Assembly: GCA_964391595.1 (NCBI GenBank) | Contig: CAYMMM010000003.1 | Location: 1 to 56,796 of the forward strand | DNA: 56,796 nucleotides | Direction of reading: 5' to 3' | Source of the DNA: an uncultured Candidatus Saccharibacteria bacterium | GTDB lineage: Bacteria > Patescibacteriota > Saccharimonadia > CAILAD01 > GCA-016700035 | Part shown: in pieces, positions 7,861-49,176 of the stretch | How the letters are laid out: every line of letters begins with the position of its first letter | Position numbering within the stretch: position 1 is the stretch's first letter | The notes under the pieces: generated by a model | What the model saw: only the letters and a program-made list of their open reading frames with translations | What the model was told of the DNA's origin: nothing | The model's database searches: none | Position numbers and translations under genes: made by a program

Positions 7861-9252
7861 TTAGTTCGTGGTGTTACCGCCACCAGTAGATGGCACAGGA
7901 GCTGTGGTGCTAGTCGAAGCTGTGGGTGTTGTACTTGTAGACGGCGAACTCGATACGGTTGCTGTTGCTGTTGGACTAGGTGTAGTCGGAATAACACTTC
8001 CCAAGACAGGCGTTCCTTGTCTTGGTATATACGAGTTTACTGCGCCTGTACTGAAATTATAGGTACTGAGAGTGTTGTAAGTGGTAATGATGGCTACGGA
8101 TGGGTCTTGTGATGCGAACATCTCGCCACTTTGTATTGTATCGATATTTGCGCCTGGCGCAGTCTCAAATTGCTTGGTAGAGACATTGTATTTGAGTAGT
8201 AGTGGATAAGCCTTGTTGACGTTGGGGTCATAGCCTTTCATGCTCATGATATGAATGTAACCTGGCTGGATACTCGCTACGTCGTCGAATTGCAGGTTGG
8301 TCGTTGGCAGGTCCTGCCCAACCGCGGCAAAAATACTTGTGGGCTGAATAGTGATTTTGATGAGTTGTAGCTTGGTTACATTTCCGTTAGTGTCATCGAC
8401 TCGTCCGACTGCATAAATGTCTTGTGAGCCAGCAACGGACACGGCGTTGTGTGTGTGTGAGCGGTTTTTGAATGCAAATCCAGATGCGTTGGCTTTGAGA
8501 CTGCGCTTATTTGTATAAGTTGCAGTGTCATAGATCACTACATTTTTGTAGGCAGTTGGATCAGCTCCTGAACCGCGTTCGTCATTGCCATATAGAATTA
8601 CCAACCATTGACCATCGCCACTTACGACGATTCCCTCAGCAAATACGCCCGCCACGTCGTTTACATTGAGCGTTTTGACAACTGCATTTGTCAGCCCATC
8701 AACTACGGTAACTGTACCCCCATTATAGTCATGTACATAGTATTGCTTCTTGATTTCATTTGATACAACGTCGAGCATCCCGCTTTTTGTGGTTAGCGCG
8801 AGCGACTTGCCGGTATATGTATGGGTAGTAGTATCAATACTTGGCACAAGTAAGCTTTCAGACTGCAAGCCACCACACCCTGACGGTATTACAAATGCCC
8901 TGTTGGCGCTCCTAAGTTCAAGTACGTGATCATACCAGTAAGGTCGATTTGTCGTGCACCCATTTTGGGATGGGTAAGCGGGTAGGTCGATGCTTTTGAC
9001 CATCGACTTTGTCGTCGGATCCCATACCTCCACGCTGTTTTTGTTATTAGCCGTAGTGTAGCCGGCATAATAAACATATTCCTTAAGCGCACTCGCCTTC
9101 GAGAAGAAAATATAAATGAAGCCTAGTGTGGCAATGAGTAGTATTGAGAGTGCAAGGACTAGCTTGGGATTAAACTTTACTTTTTGTTGAAGCCTGGAAG
9201 CTGAAGATACGTTTGTTTTTGGTGTTTTGAGTGTCGATGTCTTTGCAGGCAT
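7861..9252 (-). CDS. Surface protein paralogue 2 (same leader and same PSTGGGNTTN tail, diverged beta-rich core)
   Basis: The first ~55 aa and last ~10 aa nearly match 6263..7786. Weak core similarity also exists (DPTTKS..IDLPAY..Q.GC). Confidence 0.75.
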   Translation of the reverse strand: MPAKTSTLKTPKTNVSSASRLQQKVKFNPKLVLALSILLIATLGFIYIFFSKASALKEYVYYAGYTTANNKNSVEVWDPTTKSMVKSIDLPAYPSQNGCTTNRPYWYDHVLELRSANRAFVIPSGCGGLQSESLLVPSIDTTTHTYTGKSLALTTKSGMLDVVSNEIKKQYYVHDYNGGTVTVVDGLTNAVVKTLNVNDVAGVFAEGIVVSGDGQWLVILYGNDERGSGADPTAYKNVVIYDTATYTNKRSLKANASGFAFKNRSHTHNAVSVAGSQDIYAVGRVDDTNGNVTKLQLIKITIQPTSIFAAVGQDLPTTNLQFDDVASIQPGYIHIMSMKGYDPNVNKAYPLLLKYNVSTKQFETAPGANIDTIQSGEMFASQDPSVAIITTYNTLSTYNFSTGAVNSYIPRQGTPVLGSVIPTTPSPTATATVSSSPSTSTTPTASTSTTAPVPSTGGGNTTN

Positions 9253-23112: not shown

Positions 23113-23817
23113 TCAGTTGATGAGACAGGCCTTGCGGTGCAGACGTTGCACCACGAAGATGAAGATGCCGCAGCACAACATCACCATGCCGAGGTTGAGC
23201 GCCCCGCTTGACGTGCCCCCGGTGTAGGCCAGGCGGGTCTGCGTGGTCTTCGGGGTATCGGGGCCGGGGCTCGACGGGGGAGCGGTACTTGCAGTCGGCA
23301 CCACCGTCGTGCTTGTCGTAGTGCTCGGAGCCGCAGCGGTCGTACTCGTCGTACTTGTTGTGGGCTTCGGAGCCGCGGTGGTCGTGCTCGTCGTGGTCGG
23401 AGCGACGGTCGTCGACGTCGTGGTACTGGTCGTCTTCGGAACCGTGGTGGTGGTCGAAGTGGTCGTCGAGGGCTTGGTGGGCGGCGGGTAGTGGCGGATG
23501 GTGGTGGTCGTCGTGTCCTCCGGACAGTCCACCTCGTCCTCATCCTCGGATTCGTCGTCGTTCCACTCCTCGTCGTCGTGGTGCCAGCTGTCCTCGCTGT
23601 CATCCCACTCTTCTTCCGAGTCGTCGGAGTTGTCGTGGTGCCAGCCGCTCTCGTCGCGAGGCTCGTGGCCGCCGTAACCACCGCGTGCGCTGGCGCCGGC
23701 TGCGGTGCCGGATGCCGACAAGGCGGCGAATCCGAGGAGGATCGTGGCGATCGCGAGGGTGATCAGGCTGATCGCGCGACGGAGCGTCTGCTTCGTCTTG
23801 GTAGGTGCGTGAGTCAT
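23113..23817 (-). CDS. Cell-wall-anchored protein with an LAxTG sorting signal (high-GC islet)
   Basis: Signal peptide, then an acidic W/H/D/E-rich block and a Thr/Pro stalk. The C-terminus is LAYTG, a hydrophobic segment and QRLHRK. Confidence 0.8.
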   Translation of the reverse strand: MTHAPTKTKQTLRRAISLITLAIATILLGFAALSASGTAAGASARGGYGGHEPRDESGWHHDNSDDSEEEWDDSEDSWHHDDEEWNDDESEDEDEVDCPEDTTTTTIRHYPPPTKPSTTTSTTTTVPKTTSTTTSTTVAPTTTSTTTAAPKPTTSTTSTTAAAPSTTTSTTVVPTASTAPPSSPGPDTPKTTQTRLAYTGGTSSGALNLGMVMLCCGIFIFVVQRLHRKACLIN

Positions 23818-26565: not shown

Positions 26566-29500
26566 CTATTGTATGACGTGGTAGGTCCATTTGTATTGAG
26601 TTGAGCCAGTAAGCCCTGAGCTACCTGTCGAGAGCTTGAAGGTGCCGGTCGCAGGCGTCACATAGACTGCTGCATTACCTGAGAGGGTGGCGGCATTACC
26701 GTTAGCCGGCGAGAAGACTACTTGAGGTGCAGCGGAGAATGCGGCCGCAAATGTCACGGTAAGCACGTCCGCAGAAGTAGCCGGGCTTGATCCCGTAGTG
26801 AGTGTGATGGTGCCAGCAGTATCGGTGCCACTAATACTGATCGTCGGGCTCGTACCGGCACCCGTATTTGCGGCGATGGATGGTGCTGAGCCACCGGATA
26901 TGATATGCCCAGTAATAGCCAGGTCTTTGACGGTGATCTTCATATTAGTTGAGTCGGCCGTGAAGAAGGCCGTACCGCTGGCATTTTGGATGGTCATTTC
27001 AGTCGTGGAGTCGGAGGCATTCTTGACTATGAATTGTGATCCTGCGACGGTGGTGACATTTGTAGAGGTGTTAATCGAGAATTGGTTCGTACCGGCCGCG
27101 TTTTGAACTTGGAAGGCGGTCGTAGAATCGGACTGGTTCTTGAAAGTTGCGGCTGAGTTAATGACTCCGTTTAAGCTGACCGCTCCAAGGCTGTAGTTTG
27201 TAGAGGCGCTTGCAGCTTCGAGCTGTACAGCATCTATATAGAATGTGCGGGCGGTTGCATCGGTCTGACGGAAGTACACGAATCGAGTACCTGTTGGCGA
27301 AGCTGACACCGTAAAGGTACAGGTGTAACGAGTCCATGCGCCGGTGATAACTGTCTGCCCGGTCGCGCAGCTCGTCGAGGTGCTACCGTCGTTTGTATAG
27401 CCGATTTCAAACGTCGAGAAGCTGGAGCTCACAGCCTTAGCATACAGAGAGAAGCTATAGGTTGTATTGGCTGCGAGGGTATAGGTATAGCGCGCACCGG
27501 CATTTGATGTTGCAGTTGTGACCACTGAGAGCGCGCCTGCGCCTGAGAACTGATCGGACGTTGTACGCGTTAGTGTCGCTCCAGTTGTGGCAGTGTATCC
27601 AGTGGTTGCGGTATCAAACGAAGGATTAGTTATAAGGTTTGCGTTACCAGTTGTAGAGGAGTCGACATTCAAAATCACGTTACTACTTACGTTTTGAACC
27701 TGAAGAGCTGTGGCTGAATTAAAGTTTGTCTTTAGAAATACCGCACCATTTCCCAAAACCGTTAAGTCACCAAGGCCCGAGCCGGTAATTTCACCGTGGT
27801 AGGACCCCAAGCTGCCGTATACGATCGATCCGGTGTATGGCATCTTTAGAGTTCCTGCATTAGTGCTGGTTGAGGAAGTATCAAAAGTGAAGAAACTTTG
27901 TCCAGCTGAATTCTGTATATCAAAAACGTTCACCGAGTTTGCGGTATTCCTGATTGTCACGGGCGAGGAAACAACGCCGTTTAACGCAATAGTGCCTTGT
28001 TGGTAGGCCGAGCCAACACCACCCACTGTTAGTTCGAGTTGTGCGGCGTCGACAAAATATGTCTTTGTGCCCGCTGTGGTTGCTCTGACAAAGACAAAGG
28101 CGCTTCCGGTAGTCCCTGTAGGAGTGAAGTTACAAGTAATTCTTTGCCAAATGAGTGAGCTATAAGCACTATAGGTACTACAGTTTGTGATGGTCGTGCC
28201 ATCTACCGAATAGCCAATGTCCATCGCAGTTGAGGCGGTAGAGGACTTATAGTAAATCGAAAAGGTGTAGGCGGTTCCGGAGACGAGCGCATAAGGGAAC
28301 TTAGCGCCGTCGCCAATGCCGGTAGAGCTGATTTGTAAGCTTGCAGGCCCATACGCTTGCTGTGAAGTGACTCGCGAGATTACACCACTTCCGTACGCCG
28401 CCCAGCCGGTAGTGTTTGTGTCGAAGCTTGGGTTTGAGATGAGGTTTGGTGTTGAAGGGTTTGCTGAAAGGACAACTGATCCATTGCTGTCTTTCAGCTG
28501 TAGTATGTCGGCTGTTTGGCTTGTTGTCGCCGAAATCACTCCGGTGACATTGCTTGCGCTACCACTTTGGACATTAAAGTTCCCCGTCTGTGTACTGGTT
28601 CCGTTTTGAATAAACGCTGTCGAACCTGGAGCAACCGCACAACCCGTACTCGTACAAACGGTGTTGCCGCCTACTTTTAGCGTCGTGCTTGCATTGATGT
28701 CGCCACTCACATCAAGGGCGTAGTTTGCTGATGATTGTCCGATAGCGATACGAGTGTTCGTGGTATCTGCGACTAGGATTGGTGATGCAGCAGCGTTCTG
28801 AATCTGGAATGCAGTTGTAGAGTCAGTACTGTTCTTACTGAGTATTTGCCCCGTTGCACCGACCGCAAATACGGTGCTAGGGGTAGAGGTTTGAACTTCG
28901 AATATGTTTGCGGTCTGTGAGGCCGCACCACGCAGTATGCCAGCTACACTCCCAGAGGAGGTGGATTGTATGGCGAAGTTGGCGCTCGTTTGGACAGAGG
29001 TGGAGTTTTGTATATAGCTACTCGAGCCGGCGGATGGCGCACAGGTGCCGGCACCCCCGCAGATTGCGACCCCGTTGATACGGTAATTACTACCGCTACC
29101 GATATTGATATCACCATTCACGTCGAGCATGTAGCCAGGAGTATTCGTGCCGATCCCCAAGCGTGAGTTGCTCGTGTCGGCGACGAAGAGATTGCTTGTG
29201 CCAGCCGCGTTTTGGATGACAAAAGCACTTGAGGAGTCCACCGCGTTTTGGAATGTATTCACGCCGGTGAAGGCTTGGGTCGCACTGAGTTTCGCGAGGC
29301 TACTCACATCAGAAAGATTAGATGAACTGATCTGGCTGCCGCCAATTCGATATTGGCCAGCTATATCGAGGTTACCGCTTACGTCAATCTTAGCAATGAC
29401 AGTGCCTGCAGCGTTCTTGGCCTGCAGGATGTCTGCAGTCTGACCAGACTTGGCTTTGAGGATACCGGTGGGCGAGGAGGTAGATGAAGATTCGATATTG

Positions 29501-31590
29501 AAGTTGGCGGCAGTCTGTAAGGCGGTGCCGTTCTGGACATAGAATCCCGAGTTTGATCCGGCGGTACATCCGGTGGAGTCACAGACTAAGTTGCCGCCCA
29601 CTCGTAAGCCGGTTGTGGAATTGATATCACCAGCCACATCTAGGCTGTATGATGGTGTCGAGACACCCACGCCAACTCGCGTGTTGGTAGTATCAACGGT
29701 GAAGACATTTGAGCTACCTGCGGCATTTTGTACTTGGAAAGCAGTAGTCGAGTCTGCGCTAGCCTTGTAGAGTCCTTGGGCCACAACCGTCACGAGGCTG
29801 CCGTTGTCAGAAATCGAACTATCACCCACGGATTGCGAGCCGGTGAATTTAGTCAATTTATTCGTTGTGCCGCCAAGTGTTGTGACGCCACCACCAGATG
29901 ATGCGCAGTTACCAACTGTCGTACAAACGGTATAGGTGCCAGGAGTTGTAGCGGCATCAAAGTTGTACGTCAGATTTCCGGTTGGGGTACCTGTAAAGCC
30001 AATGGCGACCGTGTCGGACCCGTTTACAGCTCTGAATTGTGCAGTCATGTCTCCTTGAAGGATGAGGCTTTGGTTTGTGGCGCCGATCGTCATGGTTGCC
30101 GTTGGCTGGATGGTATTGACGGTTAAGGGAGAGGAGAAAGTATTATTTCCTGAGAAGGTCTGATTGCCATTCAGGAGTGCTACGTTTGCACTTAGTCTGC
30201 TGTCACTTAGGGTGCCCGCTGCAATATTCGACGCGTTGAGACTTGTGAGGTTGACACCAGATAGTGTGGGGAGTGCCCCTGAACCCGTCAGCTGGACGAG
30301 TTTATTGGCGACGTTGAAGGTATTGCCTTGAAGAGTAACGTTTGCGCTCAGTCGAGAGTCACCAAGTGTACCTGAGGTGATCTGTGACGCGTTGAGATTG
30401 GTGAGGTTCGATCCACTCACGACTGGCAGTGCACCTGTGCCGTCGAGCTGGACGAGTTTATTGGCGACGTTAAAGGTATTGCCCTGCAGGGTGACATCAC
30501 TACTGAGCCGAGTATTGTTGATGGTTCCTGTGCTGAGTGCGCTTGCGTTGAGGGCGGTGATATTGGATCCACTTATTGCAGGTAGTGCACCAGTGCCATC
30601 GAGCTGGACCAGCTGTCCAGCACCATTAAATGTATTTCCTTGAATGGTGACGGTGCTATCGAGGTTGATCGTGACATCGCCACTCGTACCACCACCAGTC
30701 AGGCCAGTTCCGGCTACGACGCTCGTTATGTCTCCACCGGAGTTGGTCGAAGTGATCGTGATCTCGCTGGTACCAGTATTTGGAGTTATCTGGATGCCAG
30801 TGCCCGCAACCAGGCTCACTGCACCCGTGCCCGTAGTGCTCGAAATACCATTGAGCGATCCAAGCACGCCTCCGCTCAGGGCAGAAAGTGGAATTACTTG
30901 TCCGAGCCGGGTGACTGTACTGTCGAGCCGGTCATTGGATAGGGTGCCGCTGGTGATAGCAGCAGCATTGATATTTGAGAGGTTAGCCCCATTGCCCTGG
31001 AAGGTGCTGGCGATAATCGTCCCGCCAATGTTGATGTTTCCAGCCTGCGCAACTTGAGGCACGTTTGTCGAGAGGTTGACTTTATTTGTCAGGCTGCGAG
31101 AAATCGCGTCGATGGCAGCTTCAGAGAGTTGTATGCCTCCACGAATCGCAAGCTCACCATTGATGCTGACCGTCTGATCGCCGATTGAGCTGGCTGCATT
31201 GGGGCTGGTTGTGTTGACGTTCTCGAGCTTCGTCTGCGAATAGTTCTTGAGGACATCTTGCTGAGAGGTTGAGCGGCTAATTGATGAGTAAAGTCGCCAC
31301 GCGAAGAGGCCGAGGATTCCAGTCAAGAAGAACAGAATAATAAATACCAGCGCATGGCGATTGCGCCAGATGCTCGGCTTGCGCAATGGCGTGCCGACCC
31401 CGCTTGACGACGTAGATGCAGGAGTCGCGGAAGGTCGATTTGCAGACGCTGTAGCTTGTGTTGTCCCTGGAGCACTTGCTGGCGCTGTAGGCTGAACAGC
31501 ATCGCGACGGAGACTCTCCATCTGATTTTCACCCGGGCTATTCGGCGTTTGTGCGTTGGTTTGTTTTGGCCCCATAAAGATAGCGTGCAA
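26566..31590 (-). CDS. Giant fibre-like surface protein (N-terminal anchor, tail-fibre-type repeats, two CBM4/9-like modules)
   Basis: TM at aa ~80-100. Three 52-aa repeats and three ~140-aa modules (DSTTAFQ.QNAAG...DT.N.R.G.G...P.Y.LDV.GDI). Two modules begin NLI.NPSFDT.TTG. More likely ATG starts are 31575 or 31521. Confidence 0.85.
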   Translation of the reverse strand: MHAIFMGPKQTNAQTPNSPGENQMESLRRDAVQPTAPASAPGTTQATASANRPSATPASTSSSGVGTPLRKPSIWRNRHALVFIILFFLTGILGLFAWRLYSSISRSTSQQDVLKNYSQTKLENVNTTSPNAASSIGDQTVSINGELAIRGGIQLSEAAIDAISRSLTNKVNLSTNVPQVAQAGNINIGGTIIASTFQGNGANLSNINAAAITSGTLSNDRLDSTVTRLGQVIPLSALSGGVLGSLNGISSTTGTGAVSLVAGTGIQITPNTGTSEITITSTNSGGDITSVVAGTGLTGGGTSGDVTINLDSTVTIQGNTFNGAGQLVQLDGTGALPAISGSNITALNASALSTGTINNTRLSSDVTLQGNTFNVANKLVQLDGTGALPVVSGSNLTNLNASQITSGTLGDSRLSANVTLQGNTFNVANKLVQLTGSGALPTLSGVNLTSLNASNIAAGTLSDSRLSANVALLNGNQTFSGNNTFSSPLTVNTIQPTATMTIGATNQSLILQGDMTAQFRAVNGSDTVAIGFTGTPTGNLTYNFDAATTPGTYTVCTTVGNCASSGGGVTTLGGTTNKLTKFTGSQSVGDSSISDNGSLVTVVAQGLYKASADSTTAFQVQNAAGSSNVFTVDTTNTRVGVGVSTPSYSLDVAGDINSTTGLRVGGNLVCDSTGCTAGSNSGFYVQNGTALQTAANFNIESSSTSSPTGILKAKSGQTADILQAKNAAGTVIAKIDVSGNLDIAGQYRIGGSQISSSNLSDVSSLAKLSATQAFTGVNTFQNAVDSSSAFVIQNAAGTSNLFVADTSNSRLGIGTNTPGYMLDVNGDINIGSGSNYRINGVAICGGAGTCAPSAGSSSYIQNSTSVQTSANFAIQSTSSGSVAGILRGAASQTANIFEVQTSTPSTVFAVGATGQILSKNSTDSTTAFQIQNAAASPILVADTTNTRIAIGQSSANYALDVSGDINASTTLKVGGNTVCTSTGCAVAPGSTAFIQNGTSTQTGNFNVQSGSASNVTGVISATTSQTADILQLKDSNGSVVLSANPSTPNLISNPSFDTNTTGWAAYGSGVISRVTSQQAYGPASLQISSTGIGDGAKFPYALVSGTAYTFSIYYKSSTASTAMDIGYSVDGTTITNCSTYSAYSSLIWQRITCNFTPTGTTGSAFVFVRATTAGTKTYFVDAAQLELTVGGVGSAYQQGTIALNGVVSSPVTIRNTANSVNVFDIQNSAGQSFFTFDTSSTSTNAGTLKMPYTGSIVYGSLGSYHGEITGSGLGDLTVLGNGAVFLKTNFNSATALQVQNVSSNVILNVDSSTTGNANLITNPSFDTATTGYTATTGATLTRTTSDQFSGAGALSVVTTATSNAGARYTYTLAANTTYSFSLYAKAVSSSFSTFEIGYTNDGSTSTSCATGQTVITGAWTRYTCTFTVSASPTGTRFVYFRQTDATARTFYIDAVQLEAASASTNYSLGAVSLNGVINSAATFKNQSDSTTAFQVQNAAGTNQFSINTSTNVTTVAGSQFIVKNASDSTTEMTIQNASGTAFFTADSTNMKITVKDLAITGHIISGGSAPSIAANTGAGTSPTISISGTDTAGTITLTTGSSPATSADVLTVTFAAAFSAAPQVVFSPANGNAATLSGNAAVYVTPATGTFKLSTGSSGLTGSTQYKWTYHVIQ
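30181..30648 (-). repeat. Three tandem 156-bp in-frame repeats inside the giant gene
   Basis: The peptide unit T.QGNTFN.A..LVQL.G.GALP..SG.N.T.LNAS.I..GT...SRLS..V occurs three times in a row (aa 315-470). Confidence 0.8.
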
Positions 31591-38197: not shown

Positions 38198-41044
38198 ATG
38201 GTAAATAGAAAAAAAATACTTGCCGCAATCATCGGTGCATTTGCTGTAGCTATTATTCTTTTAGCCGTGGCGCGTCCCGCATCAGCAAATCCGGGGCGAA
38301 TCTCACTAAGTCCCGACCCGACCTCCGTAGTTGAGGGCCAAGATATGGTAGTTACCGTCCATCTTGACGAACCGATCATTACAGAAGAGGAAGAAGGATA
38401 TGTCACGATCAATCTGACCTCCAGTGATCCGGGCCTACTGAGCCTATCGGATTCTTCGATCACATTTCCGGCAAGTGAGTGGTCGGGGTCGAAGTCATTT
38501 ACAATATCAGCGCTTCCAGATAGTGTAATCACTGGTCACCAATCGCTTACGGTCTCATTTACGACTGATTCAAATTCGGAATATTACGATGGCTTCTCTG
38601 GAGATATAGATGTCACGTTTATCGATATCGAATTGAGTGGACAATTTGCTGGTGGCACGGGAACTGAAGCGGACCCATATTTGGTGGCGAATTGCGTGCA
38701 GCTCGCGTCAGTAGGAAGCGATCCTTTGCTCGCGGATTCATACTATAAGCTCGCAAACACAATCGATTGCTCAGATACGGTCAATTGGAATGGTGGTCAA
38801 GGCTGGGTGCCACTGGCTAGCTTCACGAATAGGTTTTCAGGCACGCTTGATGGCGATAATAATAGTATCACTGGGCTTTGGTCCTTGCGTGAGCCGGCAC
38901 CGGGTCTAGGCCTTTTCTCCTATACAGAAGATGCTACTTTTAAGAACCTCAATATAAGTGGAACAATCGCTAATTCAACAGAAGATTTAGGGACATGCTC
39001 GGGTGCAATCGCTGGAGCTGTATTTGGCTCAATCACAATCGAAAATGTCAGAAGTACTACCAATATTAGCGGTCTTCAAGACACGATCGGTGGGTTGGTT
39101 GGATGTATTCTAAACGGAGACGGAGCTAGCATTATTACAGGCAGTTCGGTCGATGCTACCTTAAGCTTGGGCGCTATCGGCGGACTCGTCGGGGATGCTG
39201 ATATATCCGGTACATCAAGTCTTACGATCGAGCATTCTACATCGACCGGCACTTTTTCTGGTGGAGATGTAGGTGGTTTGCTTCGCAGGTTTGTATATCG
39301 GGACTGGGATTCGGTTTCGAGCGGCCCCGCCTTGAATATCCTTGACTGTGGGTCAAGCGCCAATATTTCCGTCACAAATGTTGCAGGTGGGCTTGTGGAA
39401 AATATAGTCCTAGATCATCGGTGGGCAACGATACAGGATGCATATTTTACGGGGTCGATTGAGGCTAGTGCGGGGAGTGGTGTAGCGGGTCTTGTGAATA
39501 GAGTAAGTACATTTGACAGCAACCCAGCCGAAACGATTATCCAAAGAAGTTACGCTAGTACGTTAATCACAAGCGCGGCTGGAAATGTAGGTGGGCTTGT
39601 TGGAGTGGTGAGTTCCGACCATGCGGTCTCGGTTGAAGAAAGCTACTTTGGTGGGATTATAGATGCGACAGGTGATTTTGTAGGGGGTCTCATCGCGAGC
39701 TCGGATGGTAGTTCAATGATTGATAACTCGTATGCAGATGCTGAATTATCTGGTGATCAGTACGTTGGTGGCCTCTTAGGAGCCGGGGTTGCGGACATAA
39801 GTAATTCATTTGCTTTCGGGACAATCACAAGCTCTGGAACAGCACTCGGAGGTATAGCTGGATCAATTAGTGGGGGTACTATTGAGGATTCATTCGCTGC
39901 TGTTTCTGTCCCCGCAAATCAGCCTACCACGATAGGCGGGCTGGCAGGTGCAATTAGCGATATGACAATTGAGAATGCCTATGTTGATGCGGGGAGAACA
40001 GAGCAAGCTTGCTACTTTACAAGTGGGCCAGGCGACTCAAGCAGTGTCGATTGTAATACAGTAAACGATGATGGCTCAGATCCAAATTATTACTTTGATA
40101 CTGCTGTTAGCGCCCCCCTAGATCAGTGGGATTTTGACGCGGTGTGGAGTAGTAATGCATATTTCTATCCTTGCTTACAATGGCAAGATTTCTGCCAGAC
40201 TTTTGAGCCGCAAATGCTGTGCGAGATGGCGACCGCGACCGCGACGACAGCGCATGCTGCATGTGACATTCAAGTTCGATCTGGGTATGAGTATGGTGAA
40301 ACGACCTGGGAGGCGCGTTATAAGAAATCAGGTGATCTAGACTACAAGGTATATGCTCTCTCTGATAATACACTTGCCGAAATGAGCCTGACTGGCCTAG
40401 AGCCCGTATCAGATTATTATCTTGAATTCCGATTTACTAATAATTGGGGCGTAGGTGAGTGGGGGCGTGTCGAGGTGCGCACACTAGAGGGTCAAGCAGA
40501 AGGAAGCGCGGCAACTGGGTCTGCACGATCTGTTGTGTTTATTCAGCAATCTTCCGGGCCTTACTCCAATCGTCAGATTAATCTCGCTGACTTTTTAGAG
40601 TTCCTTTCTAATGGCAAGCAGGTTACTGGCTTACGAGAGGGTGACGTACTAACCTTCCAGGTAGATAATGAGTGGCATACCATAACGATTCAACAAATCC
40701 TGGACGATACCGTTATAGTGCTCATTCAGTCAGAGCCGCAGACGGCAAATCTGATGCCCGGCAGATCTACGACATTCGATGTAAACGGCGACAATACAAA
40801 TGATATCGAACTGACACTTGACGAGATAGCCGATAAAACGGCTTCTATAACCTTCAAGCAATTACGCAAGCCTCTCGCTACTACAGCATCATCAAGCTCG
40901 ATCACTGAAGAAGAAGTGCAGAGTCGCACGGAGCGCTATGGTTGGGTAGTGTGGCTGGTGGTTGGTGTAGCGGCTGCATTGCTAAGTACTATATATCTGA
41001 AGAATAGACATTTGGTGCATACGAAACAAGAATCGAAGGAGTAA
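38198..41044 (+). CDS. GLUG-repeat beta-helix surface protein 1 (C-terminal membrane anchor)
   Basis: Signal peptide, then a Calx-beta-like N-domain. Many GGL[VIL]G repeats spaced about 20-25 aa apart, an FN3-like domain, and a C-terminal TM with a basic tail. Confidence 0.85.
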   Translation: MVNRKKILAAIIGAFAVAIILLAVARPASANPGRISLSPDPTSVVEGQDMVVTVHLDEPIITEEEEGYVTINLTSSDPGLLSLSDSSITFPASEWSGSKSFTISALPDSVITGHQSLTVSFTTDSNSEYYDGFSGDIDVTFIDIELSGQFAGGTGTEADPYLVANCVQLASVGSDPLLADSYYKLANTIDCSDTVNWNGGQGWVPLASFTNRFSGTLDGDNNSITGLWSLREPAPGLGLFSYTEDATFKNLNISGTIANSTEDLGTCSGAIAGAVFGSITIENVRSTTNISGLQDTIGGLVGCILNGDGASIITGSSVDATLSLGAIGGLVGDADISGTSSLTIEHSTSTGTFSGGDVGGLLRRFVYRDWDSVSSGPALNILDCGSSANISVTNVAGGLVENIVLDHRWATIQDAYFTGSIEASAGSGVAGLVNRVSTFDSNPAETIIQRSYASTLITSAAGNVGGLVGVVSSDHAVSVEESYFGGIIDATGDFVGGLIASSDGSSMIDNSYADAELSGDQYVGGLLGAGVADISNSFAFGTITSSGTALGGIAGSISGGTIEDSFAAVSVPANQPTTIGGLAGAISDMTIENAYVDAGRTEQACYFTSGPGDSSSVDCNTVNDDGSDPNYYFDTAVSAPLDQWDFDAVWSSNAYFYPCLQWQDFCQTFEPQMLCEMATATATTAHAACDIQVRSGYEYGETTWEARYKKSGDLDYKVYALSDNTLAEMSLTGLEPVSDYYLEFRFTNNWGVGEWGRVEVRTLEGQAEGSAATGSARSVVFIQQSSGPYSNRQINLADFLEFLSNGKQVTGLREGDVLTFQVDNEWHTITIQQILDDTVIVLIQSEPQTANLMPGRSTTFDVNGDNTNDIELTLDEIADKTASITFKQLRKPLATTASSSSITEEEVQSRTERYGWVVWLVVGVAAALLSTIYLKNRHLVHTKQESKE

Positions 41045-41112: not shown

Positions 41113-44100
41113 ATGGAGGGCTGGGTGTCTGTAAGGATAGCCGGAACAACAAAAATGAAACGTATCGCAAAAAAAATCGAGAACTTGGGGCGCCTATCGC
41201 GGCTCTTAGTCGCAGTGCTAATATCATTGCCGTTATCGATATTCCCTTCTACTGCACAGCACACAAAGGCATTTAGTGGTACTGGTCTAGGTACAGCAGA
41301 GAGCCCATATCTTATTACTGATTGTGATGAGCTTCAGTCTATCGATATTGATGGCCAAAATTATGAAACAGAAGGCAAGACTTACAAGCTTGCTAGCGAC
41401 ATTGACTGTACAGCAACAAGTACGTGGAATAGCGGCCAAGGCTTTGACCCAATAAACGACTTTGGCGGCATCTTCGATGGTGATGGACACACAATTAATG
41501 GACTTACCATTAATCGACCATCGACTGATAATGTTGGTCTTTTTTCATACGCGGCCTACGAAGCACTTATTACAAGGGTGAGTTTGACGAACGTAAATAT
41601 AACTGGTGATAGCTATGTTGGCGGAATCGCCGGTGAAATAAATGGAACGCTTTTAGACGTTCATGTATCTGGCAGCGTAAGCGGTAGTAATGATGAATAT
41701 TATCAAGGAGTTGGCGGAATCGCCGGACGCAAAGGTAATACTGGATCTATTCTTGATCGAGTCAGCTTTGAAGGCACTGTCACTAATGCGGGTACTTCAA
41801 CCGGGGGTATCGTTGGGTATGCCGGCAATATTGGGGCACTTACAAATAGTTTTGTTAATGCATCAGTAAATGGTCAAACGCACACCGGAGGGCTCATTGG
41901 CTATATGGGATCGTGTTGTAATGTAGTGAGTAATACGTATGCTATTGGAGATGTGACCGGCACCACAAACGTCGGTGGATTAATTGGTCGCTATCAAGAA
42001 GTTTCCTCTGATGACAATAGGGTTGAAAACAGTTTTGCTGCAATTGCAGTGAGCGGTAGTTCGAACGTCGGTGCGGTTGTGGGTAGTATCAATAACATTG
42101 GCTCAACTCCGCTAACGAATCTGGCGTTTGATCAGGACATTGCGGGAGTGAGTGATTGTATTGGAGCCTCGGACTCGGGGGTCGTAAGCTGTACTGCTCG
42201 TAATACAGATGGGTTGAGCCCTGAATACCTACAAGACAGTGCAAACGAACCGCTTGCGAGCTGGGATTTTACCGACGTCTGGAATGAGGAGGTAGGAGAT
42301 TACCCAAGTTTAAGCCCTGTCACCGATCTGAGCGTTCCGGGTGCAGTTACTGGCATATCGGTTGACTACCCCAACTTGCCAAATGAAGCGGAGTTTAGTT
42401 TTACTGGGCCAGTAGATAGTGGATCATTCCCTGTGAGTTACTACGAAACAGAGGTTCGTTTAGCAGATTCGGACTGGAACAGTGTGGATGGGGGCAGTAC
42501 AAGCGACGCTTCTCCAATGAGTGTTAATAATTTATCACTTGGGACAGATTACGTTGTTCGCATCCGAGCAGTCAGCATATACGGGGCAGGAGACTGGACG
42601 GAGTATAACTTTAGTACTAGTCCTGCGGTTAATAGAGATATCAGCACATGTGAGCAGCTGCATGATATCGATGAGGATGCTTCGTTCTTAGATAACATAA
42701 CACTTACAGATGATATTGATTGCTCTGATATTGATAATTTCTCACCACTCAGTTTTGAAGACAGTTCGTATGCAGGTATTTTTGATGGCCAAGGTCACAC
42801 TATTTCGAACATAACAATGGAAGGCGATGACACCGGAGACTGGGGCCTGTTCAGCCATTTGGGTACTGGGGTTGTACGTGATCTTACAATTGAAGATGGT
42901 TCTATAGATGTTACTAATGATGCCTATGACTGTGGTGCTCTGGCTGGTGAGGCATATGGTACGACAATTACTGATGTCCATGTTCGTAATTATGATATAT
43001 CTTGCCGGTCTGTTGTCGGGGGGATAGTCGGTAATTACGACTCAGAGGACGGCGTAAATATTGAATTGACTAATCTCAGTGTTACTGGTGGATCAATGAC
43101 AGTAAGTGACAATAGAGCAGGTGGTCTATTTGGTGATGTGGATGTTAATGATGCATCAACCCTACTAGTTGAAAAAATATATTCTGATACAGCAGTAAAT
43201 TCTGAAGGGTCGGCAGGTGGTCTATTTGGTGAAGTTGACGTCGAAAATGACGAAGACGATGGCGATCCAGACGCTGTTATTACACTGAGAGATGCCTATT
43301 CTAAATCTATAGTAACGTCAACTGGCGATGATGTCGGTGGCTTGATTGGATACGCTGAAGTATATAACGATGGCTATGAGACTGTTTCCAAGATCGTCAT
43401 AGAAAACACCTATAGTTCGGGGTCAATCAGCGGATATTCAAATGTTGGTGGTTTAATTGGGGAATTGTATGATCTGGAATACGAGGGCGAAGAAGTCGAG
43501 ATCACTCATTCTTTTGTAACGAGCAGTATTAGTGACGAGGATTCCTCAAATGCTCATGCGGTGATCGGTTCTGAAATTGATATTGACGAGGGCCAATTGA
43601 CACTAGATGGTGTGTACTTTGATCAAACTGCCACCGGTAAAGACCAGGCACTCTTTGAAGATGATTACGCTGGATCATCTGCCATTAATACCGATGGCTC
43701 TGAGGGTGATTACTTCAAGAATAATGTCGAGAACCCTCCGCTAGACACATGGGATTTTGACGATATATGGCTAGTAAATGTAGATGACTATCCGACATTC
43801 ATTGGGCAACCATCTGAAGATATCAATATAGACATGAGTTCGGCAGAAGACGGATCACTGATCAATTTTACTGCGCAAGGATGTGATTCTCTTGGAGAAT
43901 GGCAGACTAGTAAAGAGTCCCAACTGGCCAAGCAAGATATCGGCTTTGATTACCCTGAGGGGCTGGTGAAGTTCGAATTGCTTAGCTGTGAAAGTGGCGG
44001 AGATGCTACTATTCAATTTACTGTTGTAACTAATCTAAAAGCAGGCGAAATTAGCGTTCGTAAATACAGCGAAACTCTTACTACCTTTACGACACTGACT

Positions 44101-44286
44101 GATGAGAATAGCAATGTGTCAATTGAAGAAGTGACAATTGATGATCAAGCTGCACTGCGTGTGACATATGTACTTACCGATGGCGGCTTACTCGATCAAG
44201 ACGGCTTAGTGAACGGCGAGATCGTTGACCCAGTAGGTGTGGCACAAGTAGCCCTGACTGCTCCAAATACAGGATCTGGCCATTAA
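41113..44286 (+). CDS. GLUG-repeat beta-helix surface protein 2 (two beta-helix modules, FN3-like domain, LTAPNTGSGH C-terminus)
   Basis: Signal peptide (an alternative ATG at 41155 gives MKRIAKK). Two FDG.GHTI..L entry motifs are each followed by VGG[LI][IVF]G repeats. Confidence 0.85.
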   Translation: MEGWVSVRIAGTTKMKRIAKKIENLGRLSRLLVAVLISLPLSIFPSTAQHTKAFSGTGLGTAESPYLITDCDELQSIDIDGQNYETEGKTYKLASDIDCTATSTWNSGQGFDPINDFGGIFDGDGHTINGLTINRPSTDNVGLFSYAAYEALITRVSLTNVNITGDSYVGGIAGEINGTLLDVHVSGSVSGSNDEYYQGVGGIAGRKGNTGSILDRVSFEGTVTNAGTSTGGIVGYAGNIGALTNSFVNASVNGQTHTGGLIGYMGSCCNVVSNTYAIGDVTGTTNVGGLIGRYQEVSSDDNRVENSFAAIAVSGSSNVGAVVGSINNIGSTPLTNLAFDQDIAGVSDCIGASDSGVVSCTARNTDGLSPEYLQDSANEPLASWDFTDVWNEEVGDYPSLSPVTDLSVPGAVTGISVDYPNLPNEAEFSFTGPVDSGSFPVSYYETEVRLADSDWNSVDGGSTSDASPMSVNNLSLGTDYVVRIRAVSIYGAGDWTEYNFSTSPAVNRDISTCEQLHDIDEDASFLDNITLTDDIDCSDIDNFSPLSFEDSSYAGIFDGQGHTISNITMEGDDTGDWGLFSHLGTGVVRDLTIEDGSIDVTNDAYDCGALAGEAYGTTITDVHVRNYDISCRSVVGGIVGNYDSEDGVNIELTNLSVTGGSMTVSDNRAGGLFGDVDVNDASTLLVEKIYSDTAVNSEGSAGGLFGEVDVENDEDDGDPDAVITLRDAYSKSIVTSTGDDVGGLIGYAEVYNDGYETVSKIVIENTYSSGSISGYSNVGGLIGELYDLEYEGEEVEITHSFVTSSISDEDSSNAHAVIGSEIDIDEGQLTLDGVYFDQTATGKDQALFEDDYAGSSAINTDGSEGDYFKNNVENPPLDTWDFDDIWLVNVDDYPTFIGQPSEDINIDMSSAEDGSLINFTAQGCDSLGEWQTSKESQLAKQDIGFDYPEGLVKFELLSCESGGDATIQFTVVTNLKAGEISVRKYSETLTTFTTLTDENSNVSIEEVTIDDQAALRVTYVLTDGGLLDQDGLVNGEIVDPVGVAQVALTAPNTGSGH

Positions 44287-46575
44287 ATGAGATTAGTCCG
44301 TAGGATTTTGAGCTTAACCCTAGTAGGCCTGTTGGCTACTAATTTAACGTATACCCCTATAGCGTTTGCTGTTGAGCCAGATACTACGATCGCTAGCTCA
44401 CCGGGATTAAAAACTACCGATACGACAGCGACCTTTGAATTCAGCGCCGACCAAGAGGAACCAATTACTTTTCAATGTAGAATTGATGGGGGTTCGTTAA
44501 GTTCATGTAGTAGCCCTTTTCAGACACCGACTTTAGATATCGGTGCACATGTTTTTGAAGTTCAGGCTACTAACGGTGACACTGAGACCGATGCCTCACC
44601 GGCGACATATGCTTGGGAAATTGTATCTCCAGAAATTACATCATGTGAAGAGCTGATCAATATCGATGATGTGCTTGATGGTGACTTTGAGCTCATGTCA
44701 GACCTTAACTGTGTTCCAGAAGGCAATGATGCGATGATTGGCGATAATCAAAATCCTTTCACGGGGAGCTTCGACGGTAATGATCATACAGTTACCATTG
44801 ACCTTGATCTTTCGGACAATGGTATCGGCTTGTTTTCTCAGGTCACCGATGGTGGAACAGTCAATAATCTGACGGTTGCTGGCTCAATTGGTGGCACCAA
44901 TGAAGTTGGTGGCATTGCCGGGGGAGCTACTGATGCGAGTTTTGATGATATCCATAACGAAGCCACAATAACTGGCGAAAATTCTGTCGGTGGACTCATA
45001 GGGTACATTCATGACGGTACGTCGATAATGAATTCCTCATCAAGCGGGAGCGTGACTGGCGTCAACTATGTTGGAGGCCTCGTCGGTAGATTGCATACAT
45101 CTTCGATAGCATCATCAAGTTCCACTGGTGAAGTGAACGGAGTTGATAATGTCGGCGGCGCCGTAGGGTTAATGACCGAAACTTCCGAAGTCGTCAACTC
45201 ATCAGCATCTGGTTTGGTGCAAGGAGCTAGTGCCGTCGGAGGGTTCGTTGGTGGATCGTACTGTTCAAGTTCGCACTATAGAAGCTCTGCAACGGGCAAT
45301 GTGATTGCGTCGGGCTCCGCGGTGGGTGGCTACGTCGGTGACGACGGCTGTGAGGGCCCGGGCAGTACCTATCAGGAATCCTTTGCAACTGGCAATGTAA
45401 CTGGTGGATCGCTTGTGGGTGGCTTTATTGGACAAGCTTTTGTCTCGACGCTTGATAAAACATATGCCCTTGGTGACGTAACCTCGACTGGGGGTGGCTA
45501 TGTTGGGGGACTCATCGGTTATTCAAACGGATTTGATGGGGCAGAAACTCAAGTAAATGAGTCATTTGCGCGTGGAGATGTTGTTGCAAATGGTACGAGC
45601 GTCGGTGGTTTGGTGGGCGGCACAAGTGGAGACGGTAATGTCTTTACAGACGTATTTGCTCGCGGGTCAGTAACAGGCAGTGGAATCGTAGGCGGGTTAT
45701 TGGGATATTCCACGGCTGGAACGACTACCACGAATGCGTATGCAACGGGGCTAATTACAAGTGGTGACGGAAATGTCGGTGGGCTGCTTGGAGCTGGAGA
45801 AGGTGGCACAGTTTTTAACTCGTCATTTTGGGACGAAGATGCAACGCAGATGTCACTTGGTGGGAATGGTACGCCGAAGACGACCGATGAAATGACTAAT
45901 GTCGATACTTATACACTCGAAACTACAGTCGGCCTTGCACAAGCATGGGATTTCGTCGATGACCCAAATGACGATGAAGGTACAGATGATATTTGGTTTA
46001 TTGACCAAGGCAATAACGATGGATATCCGTGCCTCACTTGGCTCAACAACAGCTGCGACTTTGCATCAGAACAAGACCCAGACGTATACGAAGATCTCAA
46101 TGGCGACTCAATCCCAGACAGTGAGCAGCCGAATGTCGGGGGTTATTACAAGGGTAGTACGGGTAAGTTTGTTGCCATGGACATGGGCGCTAATTGCGAA
46201 CTCACCGGCGATGACATGACTGAAGAATCTAATTTCCCTGTTGCTGACCCAGCATATGAATACGATAATGGCCTCTTTGAGTTCACTGCAGACTGCACAG
46301 TAGAGACCACAACTATTAAGCTGTACTACTACGATGTTGACATCACCGACTTAGTGGCTCGCAAATACAGTACAAAGACTAATGCTTACTTCACCTTAGA
46401 TGATGCTATCATCACCCAGCAGACCATTAACGGGCATAGTGTTGCCGTAGTGACTTATCAGCTCACCGATAACTCCGAACGAGATATGGATGAAGAGCCA
46501 GGCTCCATTGAGGACCCTGCTGGACTGGCGAGGTCGATCTTGAATGCTCCGAATGCCGGTATCGGTGGCATATAG
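44287..46575 (+). CDS. GLUG-repeat beta-helix surface protein 3 (LNAPNAGIGGI C-terminus)
   Basis: Signal peptide ending AFA, FDGNDHTV entry motif and more than 12 VGG[LF][IV]G repeats. The C-terminal domain is homologous to that of protein 2. Confidence 0.85.
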   Translation: MRLVRRILSLTLVGLLATNLTYTPIAFAVEPDTTIASSPGLKTTDTTATFEFSADQEEPITFQCRIDGGSLSSCSSPFQTPTLDIGAHVFEVQATNGDTETDASPATYAWEIVSPEITSCEELINIDDVLDGDFELMSDLNCVPEGNDAMIGDNQNPFTGSFDGNDHTVTIDLDLSDNGIGLFSQVTDGGTVNNLTVAGSIGGTNEVGGIAGGATDASFDDIHNEATITGENSVGGLIGYIHDGTSIMNSSSSGSVTGVNYVGGLVGRLHTSSIASSSSTGEVNGVDNVGGAVGLMTETSEVVNSSASGLVQGASAVGGFVGGSYCSSSHYRSSATGNVIASGSAVGGYVGDDGCEGPGSTYQESFATGNVTGGSLVGGFIGQAFVSTLDKTYALGDVTSTGGGYVGGLIGYSNGFDGAETQVNESFARGDVVANGTSVGGLVGGTSGDGNVFTDVFARGSVTGSGIVGGLLGYSTAGTTTTNAYATGLITSGDGNVGGLLGAGEGGTVFNSSFWDEDATQMSLGGNGTPKTTDEMTNVDTYTLETTVGLAQAWDFVDDPNDDEGTDDIWFIDQGNNDGYPCLTWLNNSCDFASEQDPDVYEDLNGDSIPDSEQPNVGGYYKGSTGKFVAMDMGANCELTGDDMTEESNFPVADPAYEYDNGLFEFTADCTVETTTIKLYYYDVDITDLVARKYSTKTNAYFTLDDAIITQQTINGHSVAVVTYQLTDNSERDMDEEPGSIEDPAGLARSILNAPNAGIGGI

Positions 46576-46608: not shown

Positions 46609-47238
46609 ATGAAGAGTCGTACGCTTCGCTTCGTTGCCATTGCACTAGGCATAGCCATACTAGTGGGTGGGCTGACGTGGCTCTTGAAGCGTCAGGTAGA
46701 AAAGCCCCAGGTTAATACTCAAATTGTCGTGTCCGATGATGACCCGAGTAGTAATAAACCCGAAGATGAAGGGTATGTGTGGAGGGGTGCTCCAGATGAG
46801 CCTAAACAAATAGAGATAAGCTCTATCGGAGTTAAAGCTTATATCCAGAAAGTTGACGTTACGAGCAAGCAACAGGTCGCAGCGCCAAACAATATATATT
46901 TAGCCGGATGGTTTGTACGTTACCCAAAGCCAGGCGAACAGGGACTGAGTATCATCGATGGACATATAGTCGATAAGTCTGATCAAGGGGTATTTACACG
47001 GCTGGGCGAAATGCAGCCTGCTGATGAATTCTCGGTTGTATTCGGCGATAATTCCAGAAAGACCTTTTCGGTTATTGAGACACGAGTGGTGGATACAGAT
47101 AAGGCGGAGTCAGTATTATTCTCTCAAAATCCATTGGTGCGCAATCAGCTTAACCTCATTACTTGCGGAGGTACTTATGACGAGTCTTCAAGGGTTTTTA
47201 ACAAGCGCGTCATTGTGATCTCGGAGCTTATCCAGTAG
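46609..47238 (+). CDS. Sortase-family transpeptidase (class E/F-like)
   Basis: N-terminal TM anchor, His in IIDGHI, catalytic Cys in LNLITCGG and Arg in KRVIVIS. Confidence 0.8.
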   Translation: MKSRTLRFVAIALGIAILVGGLTWLLKRQVEKPQVNTQIVVSDDDPSSNKPEDEGYVWRGAPDEPKQIEISSIGVKAYIQKVDVTSKQQVAAPNNIYLAGWFVRYPKPGEQGLSIIDGHIVDKSDQGVFTRLGEMQPADEFSVVFGDNSRKTFSVIETRVVDTDKAESVLFSQNPLVRNQLNLITCGGTYDESSRVFNKRVIVISELIQ

Positions 47239-47327: not shown

Positions 47328-47867
47328 ATGGATGGTCTAGAAAAGCGTTCTTCTGGCGGCTACGATCGAGCCCACAATAGCCAGGCAAAAAAATCTTCAG
47401 CTGTTCGTAAGCTAGTAAGCAAGATCGGCTCAGGCGCTGGTAGTTTGATTCGTTGGATTGCCGGCTCTAGGCTAGCACAGGTTATGCTTATAGTTCTTTT
47501 GCTTATTGGCGGTGGCTTTGGACTTTATAAGATTGGGTATTCACGCGGTGAGCAAGCACAGAAAGCACTGGATGAAAAGAGCCGCCCAAAGATCCCTAGC
47601 CGTCAGTCAAATAGTAGCAGCTCGCCCCGGCCAAGTAGCGCTATTACATCTTATGTTGGTGAGATCACAGAAATTTCAGCAGCTGGCTTGACTGTAAAAA
47701 CTACCGATAACGCGACACACAAAGTTAGCTTCGGGCAAAGCTTAGTTGTAACTGATGTAAAAGGCGCAAAGTCTGACGCGAAAAACCTGAAGAAGGGTCA
47801 GAAGATTGCTGTTTCAGGCACTGACAAGGATGGCGAACTCTCTGCTACACGCATTCGAATACGTTAG
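47328..47867 (+). CDS. Membrane-anchored hypothetical protein with a small C-terminal beta domain
   Basis: One TM (VMLIVLLLIGGGFGLY), a Ser-rich linker and a C-terminal ~70-aa domain. Confidence 0.55.
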   Translation: MDGLEKRSSGGYDRAHNSQAKKSSAVRKLVSKIGSGAGSLIRWIAGSRLAQVMLIVLLLIGGGFGLYKIGYSRGEQAQKALDEKSRPKIPSRQSNSSSSPRPSSAITSYVGEITEISAAGLTVKTTDNATHKVSFGQSLVVTDVKGAKSDAKNLKKGQKIAVSGTDKDGELSATRIRIR

Positions 47868-48578: not shown

Positions 48579-49118
48579 TTGAATAAGAAGAAAGTGCTGG
48601 CCGTTGGGTTAGCTTCACTCGGCATAGCAGGTGTACTCGGGAGTGGTGCTGCTCTTGCAGAAACTGGTTCGGGGAGCACGCTTGCAGAAAAAATAGCTAC
48701 TCATTTTAACCTCAACAAAGATGAGGTGCAGAAGGTTCTCGACCAGGATCGCGCTGATCACCAAGCTGATCGTGAGAAGCAGTACGAAGAGCGCTTGCAG
48801 AAAGCCGTTGATGATAAGAAAATTACTTCCGAGCAGCGAGACAAAATTCTCGCGAAGCACAAAGAGCTCGAGTCGTACTTCGAGTCACAACGCGATGCTA
48901 TGAAAGACAAGACACCACAAGAGCGTCGGGATGCTATGAAGACCAAGATGGATGAGATCACGCAATGGGAAAAAGACAATAATATCCCCGCTGGATATCT
49001 GCATCCTGGTGGTCCAGGTATGGGTCATGGGTCTGGGCGTGGTAAGGGCATGATGCATGGTGGCTCGGACAGCAATGATCCGGCGCCGGATGTAAGCCCT
49101 AGCTCGCAAGTACAGTAG
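48579..49118 (+). CDS. Secreted helical protein with LTxxQ-like repeats and a Gly/His/Met-rich tail (Spy/CpxP-like)
   Basis: TTG start 7 nt after AAAGGAG. Signal peptide, ITSEQRDKI and TPQERRDAM motifs, and the tail GPGMGHGSGRGKGMMHGG. Confidence 0.6.
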   Translation: MNKKKVLAVGLASLGIAGVLGSGAALAETGSGSTLAEKIATHFNLNKDEVQKVLDQDRADHQADREKQYEERLQKAVDDKKITSEQRDKILAKHKELESYFESQRDAMKDKTPQERRDAMKTKMDEITQWEKDNNIPAGYLHPGGPGMGHGSGRGKGMMHGGSDSNDPAPDVSPSSQVQ

Positions 49119-49148: not shown

Positions 49149-49176
49149 AATAGTGCCAGCAGCAGCTGGTACTATT
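49149..49176 (+). terminator. Intrinsic terminator
   Basis: AATAGTGCCAGC-AGCA-GCTGGTACTATT followed by TATTATTT. Confidence 0.65.

Follow-up and report, generated by a model that had tools for sequence, protein, structure and literature searches.

Can a protein be handled by a sortase if it ends only a few residues after the recognition pentapeptide? The question is raised by two adjacent genes, here called P2 and P3, on a 56,796-nucleotide (nt) stretch of DNA from an uncultured Candidatus Saccharibacteria bacterium (GenBank assembly GCA_964391595.1, contig CAYMMM010000003.1, positions 1 to 56,796), which is referred to as the window. Sortase substrates are generally defined by a tripartite C-terminal signal, and genome-wide substrate predictors rely on it. 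In its canonical form, this cell-wall sorting signal is composed of LPXTG, a hydrophobic domain, and a positively charged tail (PMC3297441). P2 and P3 carry an LPXTG-like pentapeptide and stop shortly after it. The comparisons described below make it reasonably probable that this end is a minimal, Saccharibacteria-specific sortase signal served by a dedicated sortase. The gene of the candidate enzyme (46609-47238) sits just beyond the stretch described in an initial annotation of these ends and was overlooked there. The features concerned are the following:

41113-44286, + strand: P2, 1057 amino acids (aa), stop codon TAA at 44284-44286 (translation of the open reading frame (ORF), Pfam, NF041766)
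43942-44244, + strand: choice-of-anchor U domain of P2, residues 944-1044 (NF041766, profile positions 4-91 of 92)
44260-44274, + strand: A-P-N-T-G of P2, followed by SGH (44275-44283) and TAA (sequence)
44287-46575, + strand: P3, 762 aa, secreted, with GLUG repeats and choice-of-anchor U, stop codon TAG at 46573-46575
46249-46530, + strand: choice-of-anchor U domain of P3 (NF041766)
46546-46560, + strand: A-P-N-A-G of P3, followed by IGGI and TAG (sequence)
46609-47238, + strand: class-F-like sortase, 209 aa (Pfam Sortase, NF033748, catalytic triad, AlphaFold2 model)

The two C-terminal ends

P2 ends in ...DPVGVAQVALTAPNTGSGH (LTAPNTGSGH), followed by TAA, and P3 in ...DPAGLARSILNAPNAGIGGI (LNAPNAGIGGI), followed by TAG. 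An LPXTG-type pentapeptide is thus present in variant form, as APNTG in P2 and, without the threonine, as APNAG in P3. Beyond the motif glycine, only SGH and IGGI remain, respectively; a hydrophobic membrane-spanning segment is absent from both proteins, and neither tail contains a lysine or arginine that could provide a positive charge. The initial annotation had quoted both ends exactly and rightly described them as devoid of a hydrophobic helix and a basic tail. Its impression that the preceding segment resembles a choice-of-anchor domain was borne out as well: NF041766 (choice_anch_U, cut-off 32 bits) matches P2 with 59.6 bits (residues 944-1044, E = 4e-16) and P3 with 35.3 bits (E = 1.6e-8, C-terminal 150 aa scanned alone). 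The two domains share 34% identity, and the profile stops upstream of PN[TA]G in both proteins.

The start codon ATG of P3 abuts the TAA of P2 in the same frame and with zero gap, and 33 nt lie between the TAG of P3 and the next ATG. The exact P3 protein recurs, with the same neighbors, in three metagenome assemblies that are independent of one another. Among genomes, the best match to the window sortase (71% identity) is an uncultured Candidatus Saccharibacteria metagenome-assembled genome (MAG). In a related MAG, the P3 orthologue (locus L004) ends in ...LLSPNTGLGGILLCV, with SPNTG followed by LGGILLCV, directly before the sortase gene, and the P2 orthologue (L025) ends in TAPNTGYGH and TAA, with the next ATG following immediately. 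The short ends are therefore real and conserved between species. The stop codons of 54 tail-less relatives are mixed (TAA 24, TAG 22, TGA 8); since all three are used, recoding is not the cause of the short ends.

Conservation of the end across the family

A word-indexed homologue search with the C-terminal 150 aa of P2 as query returned no homologues. For an exhaustive hidden Markov model (HMM) search, an alignment of the two window C-termini served as query, and clusters at 50% identity were represented by one protein each; 1625 such representatives passed a threshold of E ≤ 1e-3, and 1084 passed E ≤ 1e-10. C-termini were read for the best 150 of the 1625 representatives, and 149 could be parsed. 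Tail-less proteins ending in P-x-T-G account for 114 of these 149. P, T, and G are invariant in all 114, and x is asparagine in 107 of them. The proline is preceded by A, V, S, or T, and the glycine is followed by L, I, or F in 105 cases. The motif starts 6-8 residues past a conserved DPxG, with a distance of 7 in nearly all sequences, and the protein ends 1-14 residues (median 5) after the motif glycine; thirteen representatives stop at PNTG plus a single residue. Lysine or arginine occurs in 85 of the 114 short tails, often as GLGG[RK]. This conservation is far beyond chance. In the resulting logo of homologous C-termini, the APNxG end is kept across more than 100 divergent clusters, which disposes of the objection that homologues might have lost it.

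The consensus APN[TA]G, as initially proposed, does describe P2 and P3, but it over-generalizes: the family reads [AVS]-P-N-T-G-[LIF], and the alanine is unique to P3. Its codon GCC (46555-46557) is one base away from ACC, and threonine occupies this position in all 114 representatives and in the 54 tail-less genes of the loci described below. The alanine could identify a variant that is processed slowly or resists cleavage, and P3 may be a poorer substrate or a non-substrate. P2 is the only family sequence examined with a serine after the motif glycine.

Two further kinds of ends were encountered. Locus L070 (2356-12436) contains at least four tail-less paralogues with the variant motif APRTG[TAG]GGT.., which is also found in P0119 and P0127; no sortase is present within this 20-kb locus, and the MAG is labeled Burkholderiales, which probably reflects a binning or label problem. 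Within the window, the paralogues at 6263-7786 and 7861-9252 (both - strand) have an N-terminal membrane helix, a Pro/Thr-rich C-terminal linker, and the end PSTGGGNTTN. This end was considered as an instance of the same signal and rejected: only an orthologue of 87% identity shares it, whereas homologues of 57-60% identity end in PAPAGTTG or otherwise. Judged from these sequences, it is probably unrelated to the PNTG signal.

PNTG at the position of a sorting motif

Some relatives carry the motif within a complete signal, in which PNTG is followed by approximately ten polar residues, a hydrophobic helix of 15-20 residues, and a basic tail, as in P0135 (...APNTGLVREGISYYAAMVVGLILGITGMLLVVRQKIQKR). 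Others have LAxTG, helix, and basic tail at the same place. Since relatives carry either of these tripartite signals there, the position after the domain is that of a sorting signal. The distance from DPxG to PNTG floats between 7 and 29 residues in the helix-bearing relatives and NF041766 ends before the motif, indicating that the fold does not need PNTG. When domain cores were compared, the nearest neighbor from another locus was also tail-less for 46 of 55 tail-less cores; cores cluster by anchor type, and the short end is therefore a stable lineage trait and not a scattered truncation.

The window also encodes, at 23113-23817 (- strand), a protein of 234 aa that is unrelated to P2 and P3, with a signal peptide, an acidic His-/Trp-rich stretch, and a long Thr/Pro/Ser linker. 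It ends in a textbook LAYTG, a hydrophobic helix, and RLHRK, and the organism therefore uses ordinary class E type signals too. A subset of the relatives with LAxTG-type motif and helix extends further into the cytoplasm, with 40-50 additional conserved residues beyond the helix (...DYRKHKxPL...DPTVRY...HH.KVVT.PL..YR...; L031 4639-6057, L044 3-1679, L050 7055-9982, L052, L058, L060, L062, L075, and L090 2054-3409). Sorting signals do not usually include such an extension, and it was not matched by any NCBIfam model.

The downstream sortase

The 209-aa protein encoded directly after P3 matches PF04203 with 59.4 bits (E = 4e-16, cut-off 26.6). Of the NCBIfam families, class F (NF033748 class_F_sortase) scores best with the window protein as well as with all 18 homologues tested, and one homologue is named class F sortase by NCBI. 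However, the score of the window protein (101.9 bits) is under the curated cut-off of 166, and it is for this combination that we call it class-F-like. His119, Cys186 (LITCGG, within L-N-L-I-T-C-x-G, a motif of the TLxTC type), and Arg200 are invariant in 38 homologues. The AlphaFold2 model (mean predicted local distance difference test, pLDDT, 90.9) consists of an N-terminal helix (residues 2-27) and a beta-barrel, which Foldseek aligns to sortase structures of classes C, A, E, and D at E of about 2e-9, the class remaining undiscriminated. A phmmer search of PDB sequences gave no match to solved sortases, and a profile search of the same sequences gave weak matches to SrtA and to class C and D sortases (E about 1e-6). 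Judged from sequence and model, the enzyme looks functional: it has an N-terminal membrane helix, and its catalytic triad is intact.

Genetic linkage of tail-less genes and sortase

For the genomic context, one-genome-per-species contigs were searched with an alignment of eight sequences, resulting in 77 loci. According to the submitters' taxonomy, 64 of them are labeled Saccharibacteria, Saccharimonadia, or Saccharimonadales, and 13 bear generic or different labels. ORFs were called in these loci, family members were identified by HMM and sortases by phmmer with the window protein. Among the 110 family genes classified, seven fell under "other", including P3 with its PNAG. The remaining genes are distributed as follows:

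Tail-less PxTG (n = 54): same-strand sortase up to 3.5 kb downstream, 37; up to 200 nt downstream, 21; up to 3.5 kb away in any orientation, 39
PxTG with helix (n = 22): same-strand sortase up to 3.5 kb downstream, 5; up to 200 nt downstream, 5; up to 3.5 kb away in any orientation, 9
LAxTG-type with helix (n = 27): same-strand sortase up to 3.5 kb downstream, 1; up to 200 nt downstream, 1; up to 3.5 kb away in any orientation, 3

The tail-less genes differ from the LAxTG-type genes with p = 9e-9 and from the PxTG genes with helix with p = 4e-4 (Fisher's exact test). In the opposite direction, eight sortase homologues on long contigs were taken as starting points; a PNTG gene lies upstream of six of them (five tail-less, one with helix), and the gaps between directly adjacent substrate and sortase genes were 1, 3, and 14 nt. 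The other two were a solitary sortase and the most divergent homologue (31% identity), located after secY. This latter sortase (L104 4563-6651) follows secY immediately in a ribosomal-protein operon on a 304-kb contig; it is probably a different, housekeeping enzyme beside the translocon gene. Sortases beside helix-bearing PNTG genes interleave with those beside tail-less genes, at up to 61% identity, and one sortase clade therefore serves both kinds of PNTG genes. Outside the family, the tail-less motif is not a general feature of these genomes: 3 of 494 non-family long ORFs of the fetched loci end in a tail-less PxTG, compared with approximately 1.9 expected. The clear extra case among them is L028 10508-11920 with the end IVPNTGFARK; the other two are the window paralogues with PSTGGGNTTN.

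The arrangement of the genes varies. In L091 (1490-7126) and L098 (1447-10556), two substrate-sortase cassettes stand in tandem, each with its own sortase copy, which suggests a one-to-one pairing of enzyme and substrate. Often, several substrates are arrayed ahead of one sortase, as for P2 and P3 in the window and in L028, L029, and L070. Besides the sortase, no conserved accessory gene could be established in the loci; a DUF5666-like gene (47328-47867 in the window) recurs in only five of them.

The gene row in the window

P2, P3, and the sortase gene belong to a tight row on the + strand, which is headed by P1 and continues with smaller genes after the sortase. Two further members are relevant here:

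38198-41044, + strand: P1, 948 aa, first gene of the row and GLUG paralogue of P2 (translation, Pfam Glug)
48579-49118, + strand: small secreted helical protein, 179 aa (phmmer relatives near sortases elsewhere)

GLUG motifs are found by Pfam in P1, P2, and P3, and P2 additionally contains an fn3 domain and a Peptidase_M26_N (IgA-protease-N-like) stretch. P1 matches P2 in phmmer (E = 1e-43). Its C-terminus is a plain membrane helix with a basic tail, lacking both the pentapeptide motif and the choice-of-anchor U domain; we treat P1 only as context of the substrate/sortase system. By eye, P3 has a signal peptide with a basic n-region, a hydrophobic core, and an AxA-type site (...PIAFA|VEP), and Sec-type, apparently cleavable N-termini were likewise recognized in P2 and most relatives. 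The 179-aa product is Lys/Glu-rich and has relatives at L067 10322-10765 (phmmer E = 5e-8), L102 5548-5997, and L107 5695-5973. Proteins of this type share a C-terminal W..(K/R)(D/S)NN(I/V)P..Y and are encoded between substrate and sortase in three loci, making a role as accessory protein possible. Promoter and terminator scans gave no excess over shuffled sequence; of the terminator-like hairpins on the + strand, the strongest (49149-49176) lies beyond the gene row. Apart from this row, the window encodes at 26566-31590 (- strand) a protein of 1674 aa with an N-terminal membrane helix, many repeats of the form ...GNTFN.ANKLVQLDG(T/S)GALP..SG.NLT.LNAS..., and a non-repetitive C-terminal part.

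Weighing the explanations

The initial annotation had left the choice between a new minimal sortase signal and a signal for a different processing enzyme. We favor the former, as the end is invariant, its position is that of the sorting motif in helix-bearing PNTG and LAxTG relatives, and the linkage to the sortase is specific to PNTG genes, above all to the tail-less ones. A different enzyme recognizing the PNTG end is very improbable. The small secreted helical protein and the DUF5666-like protein do recur in some loci, but the sortase is the only consistently linked gene, with no other protease or transpeptidase candidate showing such linkage, and the motif shares its P-x-T-G core with known sortase signals. 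Still less credit can be given to an artefact, whether through truncated gene models, faulty assembly, a reassigned stop codon, or recent decay of sorting signals. All data are metagenomic, and the adjacency of the P2 stop and the P3 ATG in one frame might be taken as a hint in this direction. However, the identical P3 in three assemblies, the arrangement kept in another species-level MAG, and the use of TAA, TAG, and TGA led us to reject recoding and truncation; moreover, P3 has its own signal peptide, the next gene follows after 0-33 nt and hence leaves no room for a lost tail, and decay would not preserve a motif that is invariant across clusters at ≤ 50% identity.

Two other explanations accept the end as genuine and deserve more attention. 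The sortase might join the tail-less proteins to another protein instead of the wall, via a lysine or an N-terminal amine of a partner or of one another, either in a pilus-type polymer or on a membrane-anchored base such as P1, in which case the absence of membrane retention would be a point of design. A dedicated, operon-linked enzyme is indeed reminiscent of pilus (class C) sortases and unlike a lone housekeeping enzyme, and the tandem cassettes, the multi-substrate arrays before one sortase, the many class C sortases among the top Foldseek matches, and the plain membrane anchor of P1 at the row head agree with this. Known pilins, however, keep the full helix and tail, so polymerization alone leaves the tail-lessness unexplained; no pilin motif or conserved lysine was identified, the Foldseek scores do not separate classes C, A, E, and D, and P1-like anchored partners are inconstant across the loci. 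Taken together, we consider such protein joining rather unlikely. It is unlikely, too, that the tail-less proteins are merely secreted and stay unprocessed, with PNTG as a structural cap or binding epitope and the sortase serving the helix-bearing relatives. The nearly fixed spacing between DPxG and PNTG in tail-less members would suit a structural role, P3 tolerates alanine at the threonine position, and classical tail-removal experiments predict secretion. Against this stand the floating spacing in the helix-bearing relatives, whose fold does without PNTG, the profile end upstream of the motif, and the conservation of P, T, G, and the post-glycine residue amid variable flanking positions. 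The linkage to the sortase is also stronger for tail-less genes (37 of 54) than for helix-bearing PNTG genes (5 of 22; p = 4e-4).

Several observations weigh against a minimal sortase signal as well. Staphylococcal protein A without its hydrophobic domain or charged tail is secreted and not anchored, and a tail-less substrate is therefore expected to escape unless it is retained otherwise. In the window itself, P3 has alanine at the scissile threonine position, and P2 has serine instead of Leu/Ile/Phe after the glycine. Sorting-signal HMMs gave no match to the PNTG ends, a result that is weak because the canonical LAYTG tail of the window also stays under the cut-off (16.9 vs 27 bits). For approximately 30% of the tail-less genes, no sortase lies in the 3.5 kb around them; some of these genes belong to tandem arrays or are close to contig ends. 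Finally, the sortase does not reach the class F cut-off, and its specificity for PNTG is putative. Even so, a minimal signal with a dedicated sortase is the explanation we hold to be the probable one.

Proposed mechanism

In this reading, P2 and P3 are Sec-exported, probably adhesin-like surface proteins of a Saccharibacteria bacterium. Their C-terminal module consists of the choice-of-anchor U domain, a short fixed linker, and the proposed minimal sorting signal, [AVS]-P-N-T-G-[LIF] with 1-14 more residues, and the sortase at 46609-47238 is proposed to recognize the pentapeptide. By analogy with characterized sortases (PMC3297441, PMC8225981), cleavage would occur between threonine and glycine, Cys186 would carry the thioacyl intermediate, and the protein would then be passed on to an amine. 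As acceptor, a cell-wall precursor or peptidoglycan is most likely, and another protein is possible.

In ordinary substrates, helix and tail keep the precursor membrane-bound and thus available to the sortase. As known from sortase-mediated ligation, the enzymes need only the pentapeptide and a residue or two in vitro, and the tail is therefore not required for catalysis. For the tail-less proteins, we infer that retention is brought about by tight operon coupling, by a folded domain that docks on the sortase, or by a combination of the two, in place of helix and tail. Operon coupling would place the enzyme beside the translocon through which its substrate is exported, and it fits because the gene linkage is stronger for tail-less substrates. 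Docking is suggested because the near-fixed spacing of 6-8 residues (7 in nearly all) occurs only in the tail-less members. In a bolder scheme, the substrates would be free and not membrane-retained, the folded choice-of-anchor U domain would dock in place of helix and tail, and the sortase would ligate the large adhesin-like proteins in trans, perhaps not to the wall of the cell itself but to another protein or even to the envelope of the host bacterium that carries these epibionts; this we regard as a speculative idea, with little probability of its own.

Significance

If the minimal signal holds, the surface proteomes of Saccharibacteria, and perhaps of other Patescibacteria, would be under-called, and sorting in vivo may be able to do without membrane retention or to substitute for it. 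The cargo proteins, with their GLUG, lectin, beta-propeller, and fn3 passengers, may plausibly serve as adhesins, and how such epibiotic bacteria attach is poorly understood. With regard to applications, xPNTG-L and its enzyme would be a candidate orthogonal sortase/tag pair for protein ligation. The full-text literature searched on class F signals, PNTG, sortases of Saccharibacteria and Patescibacteria, and choice-of-anchor domains, of which the coverage is incomplete, did not describe this arrangement. On sortases in bacteria of the candidate phyla radiation (CPR), a 2019 survey says no more than that they are common (PMC6744442), and the CPR pilus treated in a 2026 preprint belongs to a chaperone-usher-like system and not to a sortase.

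Comparison with known systems

With the canonical sorting signal, the tail-less ends share the location at the extreme C-terminus of a Sec-exported protein, the P-x-T-G core, and a sortase gene alongside, and close family relatives do carry the full tripartite signal. They differ in that the window proteins lack the hydrophobic domain and charged tail, with only 3-4 residues past the glycine (1-14 in the family). Furthermore, the first motif position in the family is A, V, or S instead of L, asparagine is nearly fixed at x, and a hydrophobic residue follows the glycine.

Among the sortase classes, class F is the closest, being the best-scoring family and sharing the N-terminal membrane anchor and the His-Cys-Arg triad with the window sortase; the score of 101.9 bits against a cut-off of 166 sets the latter apart. 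The class F enzyme SrtF of Propionibacterium acnes was reported to use LPXTG (PMC8225981). In L005-L024 (Streptomyces, Janibacter, Klenkia, Georgenia, and others), the gene upstream of a class F sortase ends in ...(M)P.GGVETGG..., a helix, and an Arg-rich tail, and GGVETGG may be an unrecognized cognate signal of the actinobacterial class F sortases. As these partners are full-tailed, tail-lessness is not general to class F partners. LAxTG is the signal type used by class E sortases in Actinobacteria (PMC8225981), and many members of the choice-of-anchor U family as well as the window protein at 23113-23817 carry LAxTG, helix, and basic tail. Their genes are, however, unlinked to the window-type sortase (1 of 27), and P2 and P3 have PNTG and PNAG without a tail.

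Engineered tags such as LPETG plus a few residues are competent sortase substrates in vitro. The natural tail-less ends resemble them as a pentapeptide with a very short leaving group; the tags are artificial and are used with soluble enzyme, whereas in P2, P3, and their relatives such a tag would occur naturally. The field of sortase-mediated ligation has been reviewed (PMC9126251). With respect to the NF041766 domain, P2 and P3 pass the cut-off and the domain precedes alternative anchors in different proteins, but the model leaves the PNTG end uncovered. The enzyme family and the logic of the motif are known; the variation lies in a signal architecture without two of the three defining parts that is widespread in one phylum.

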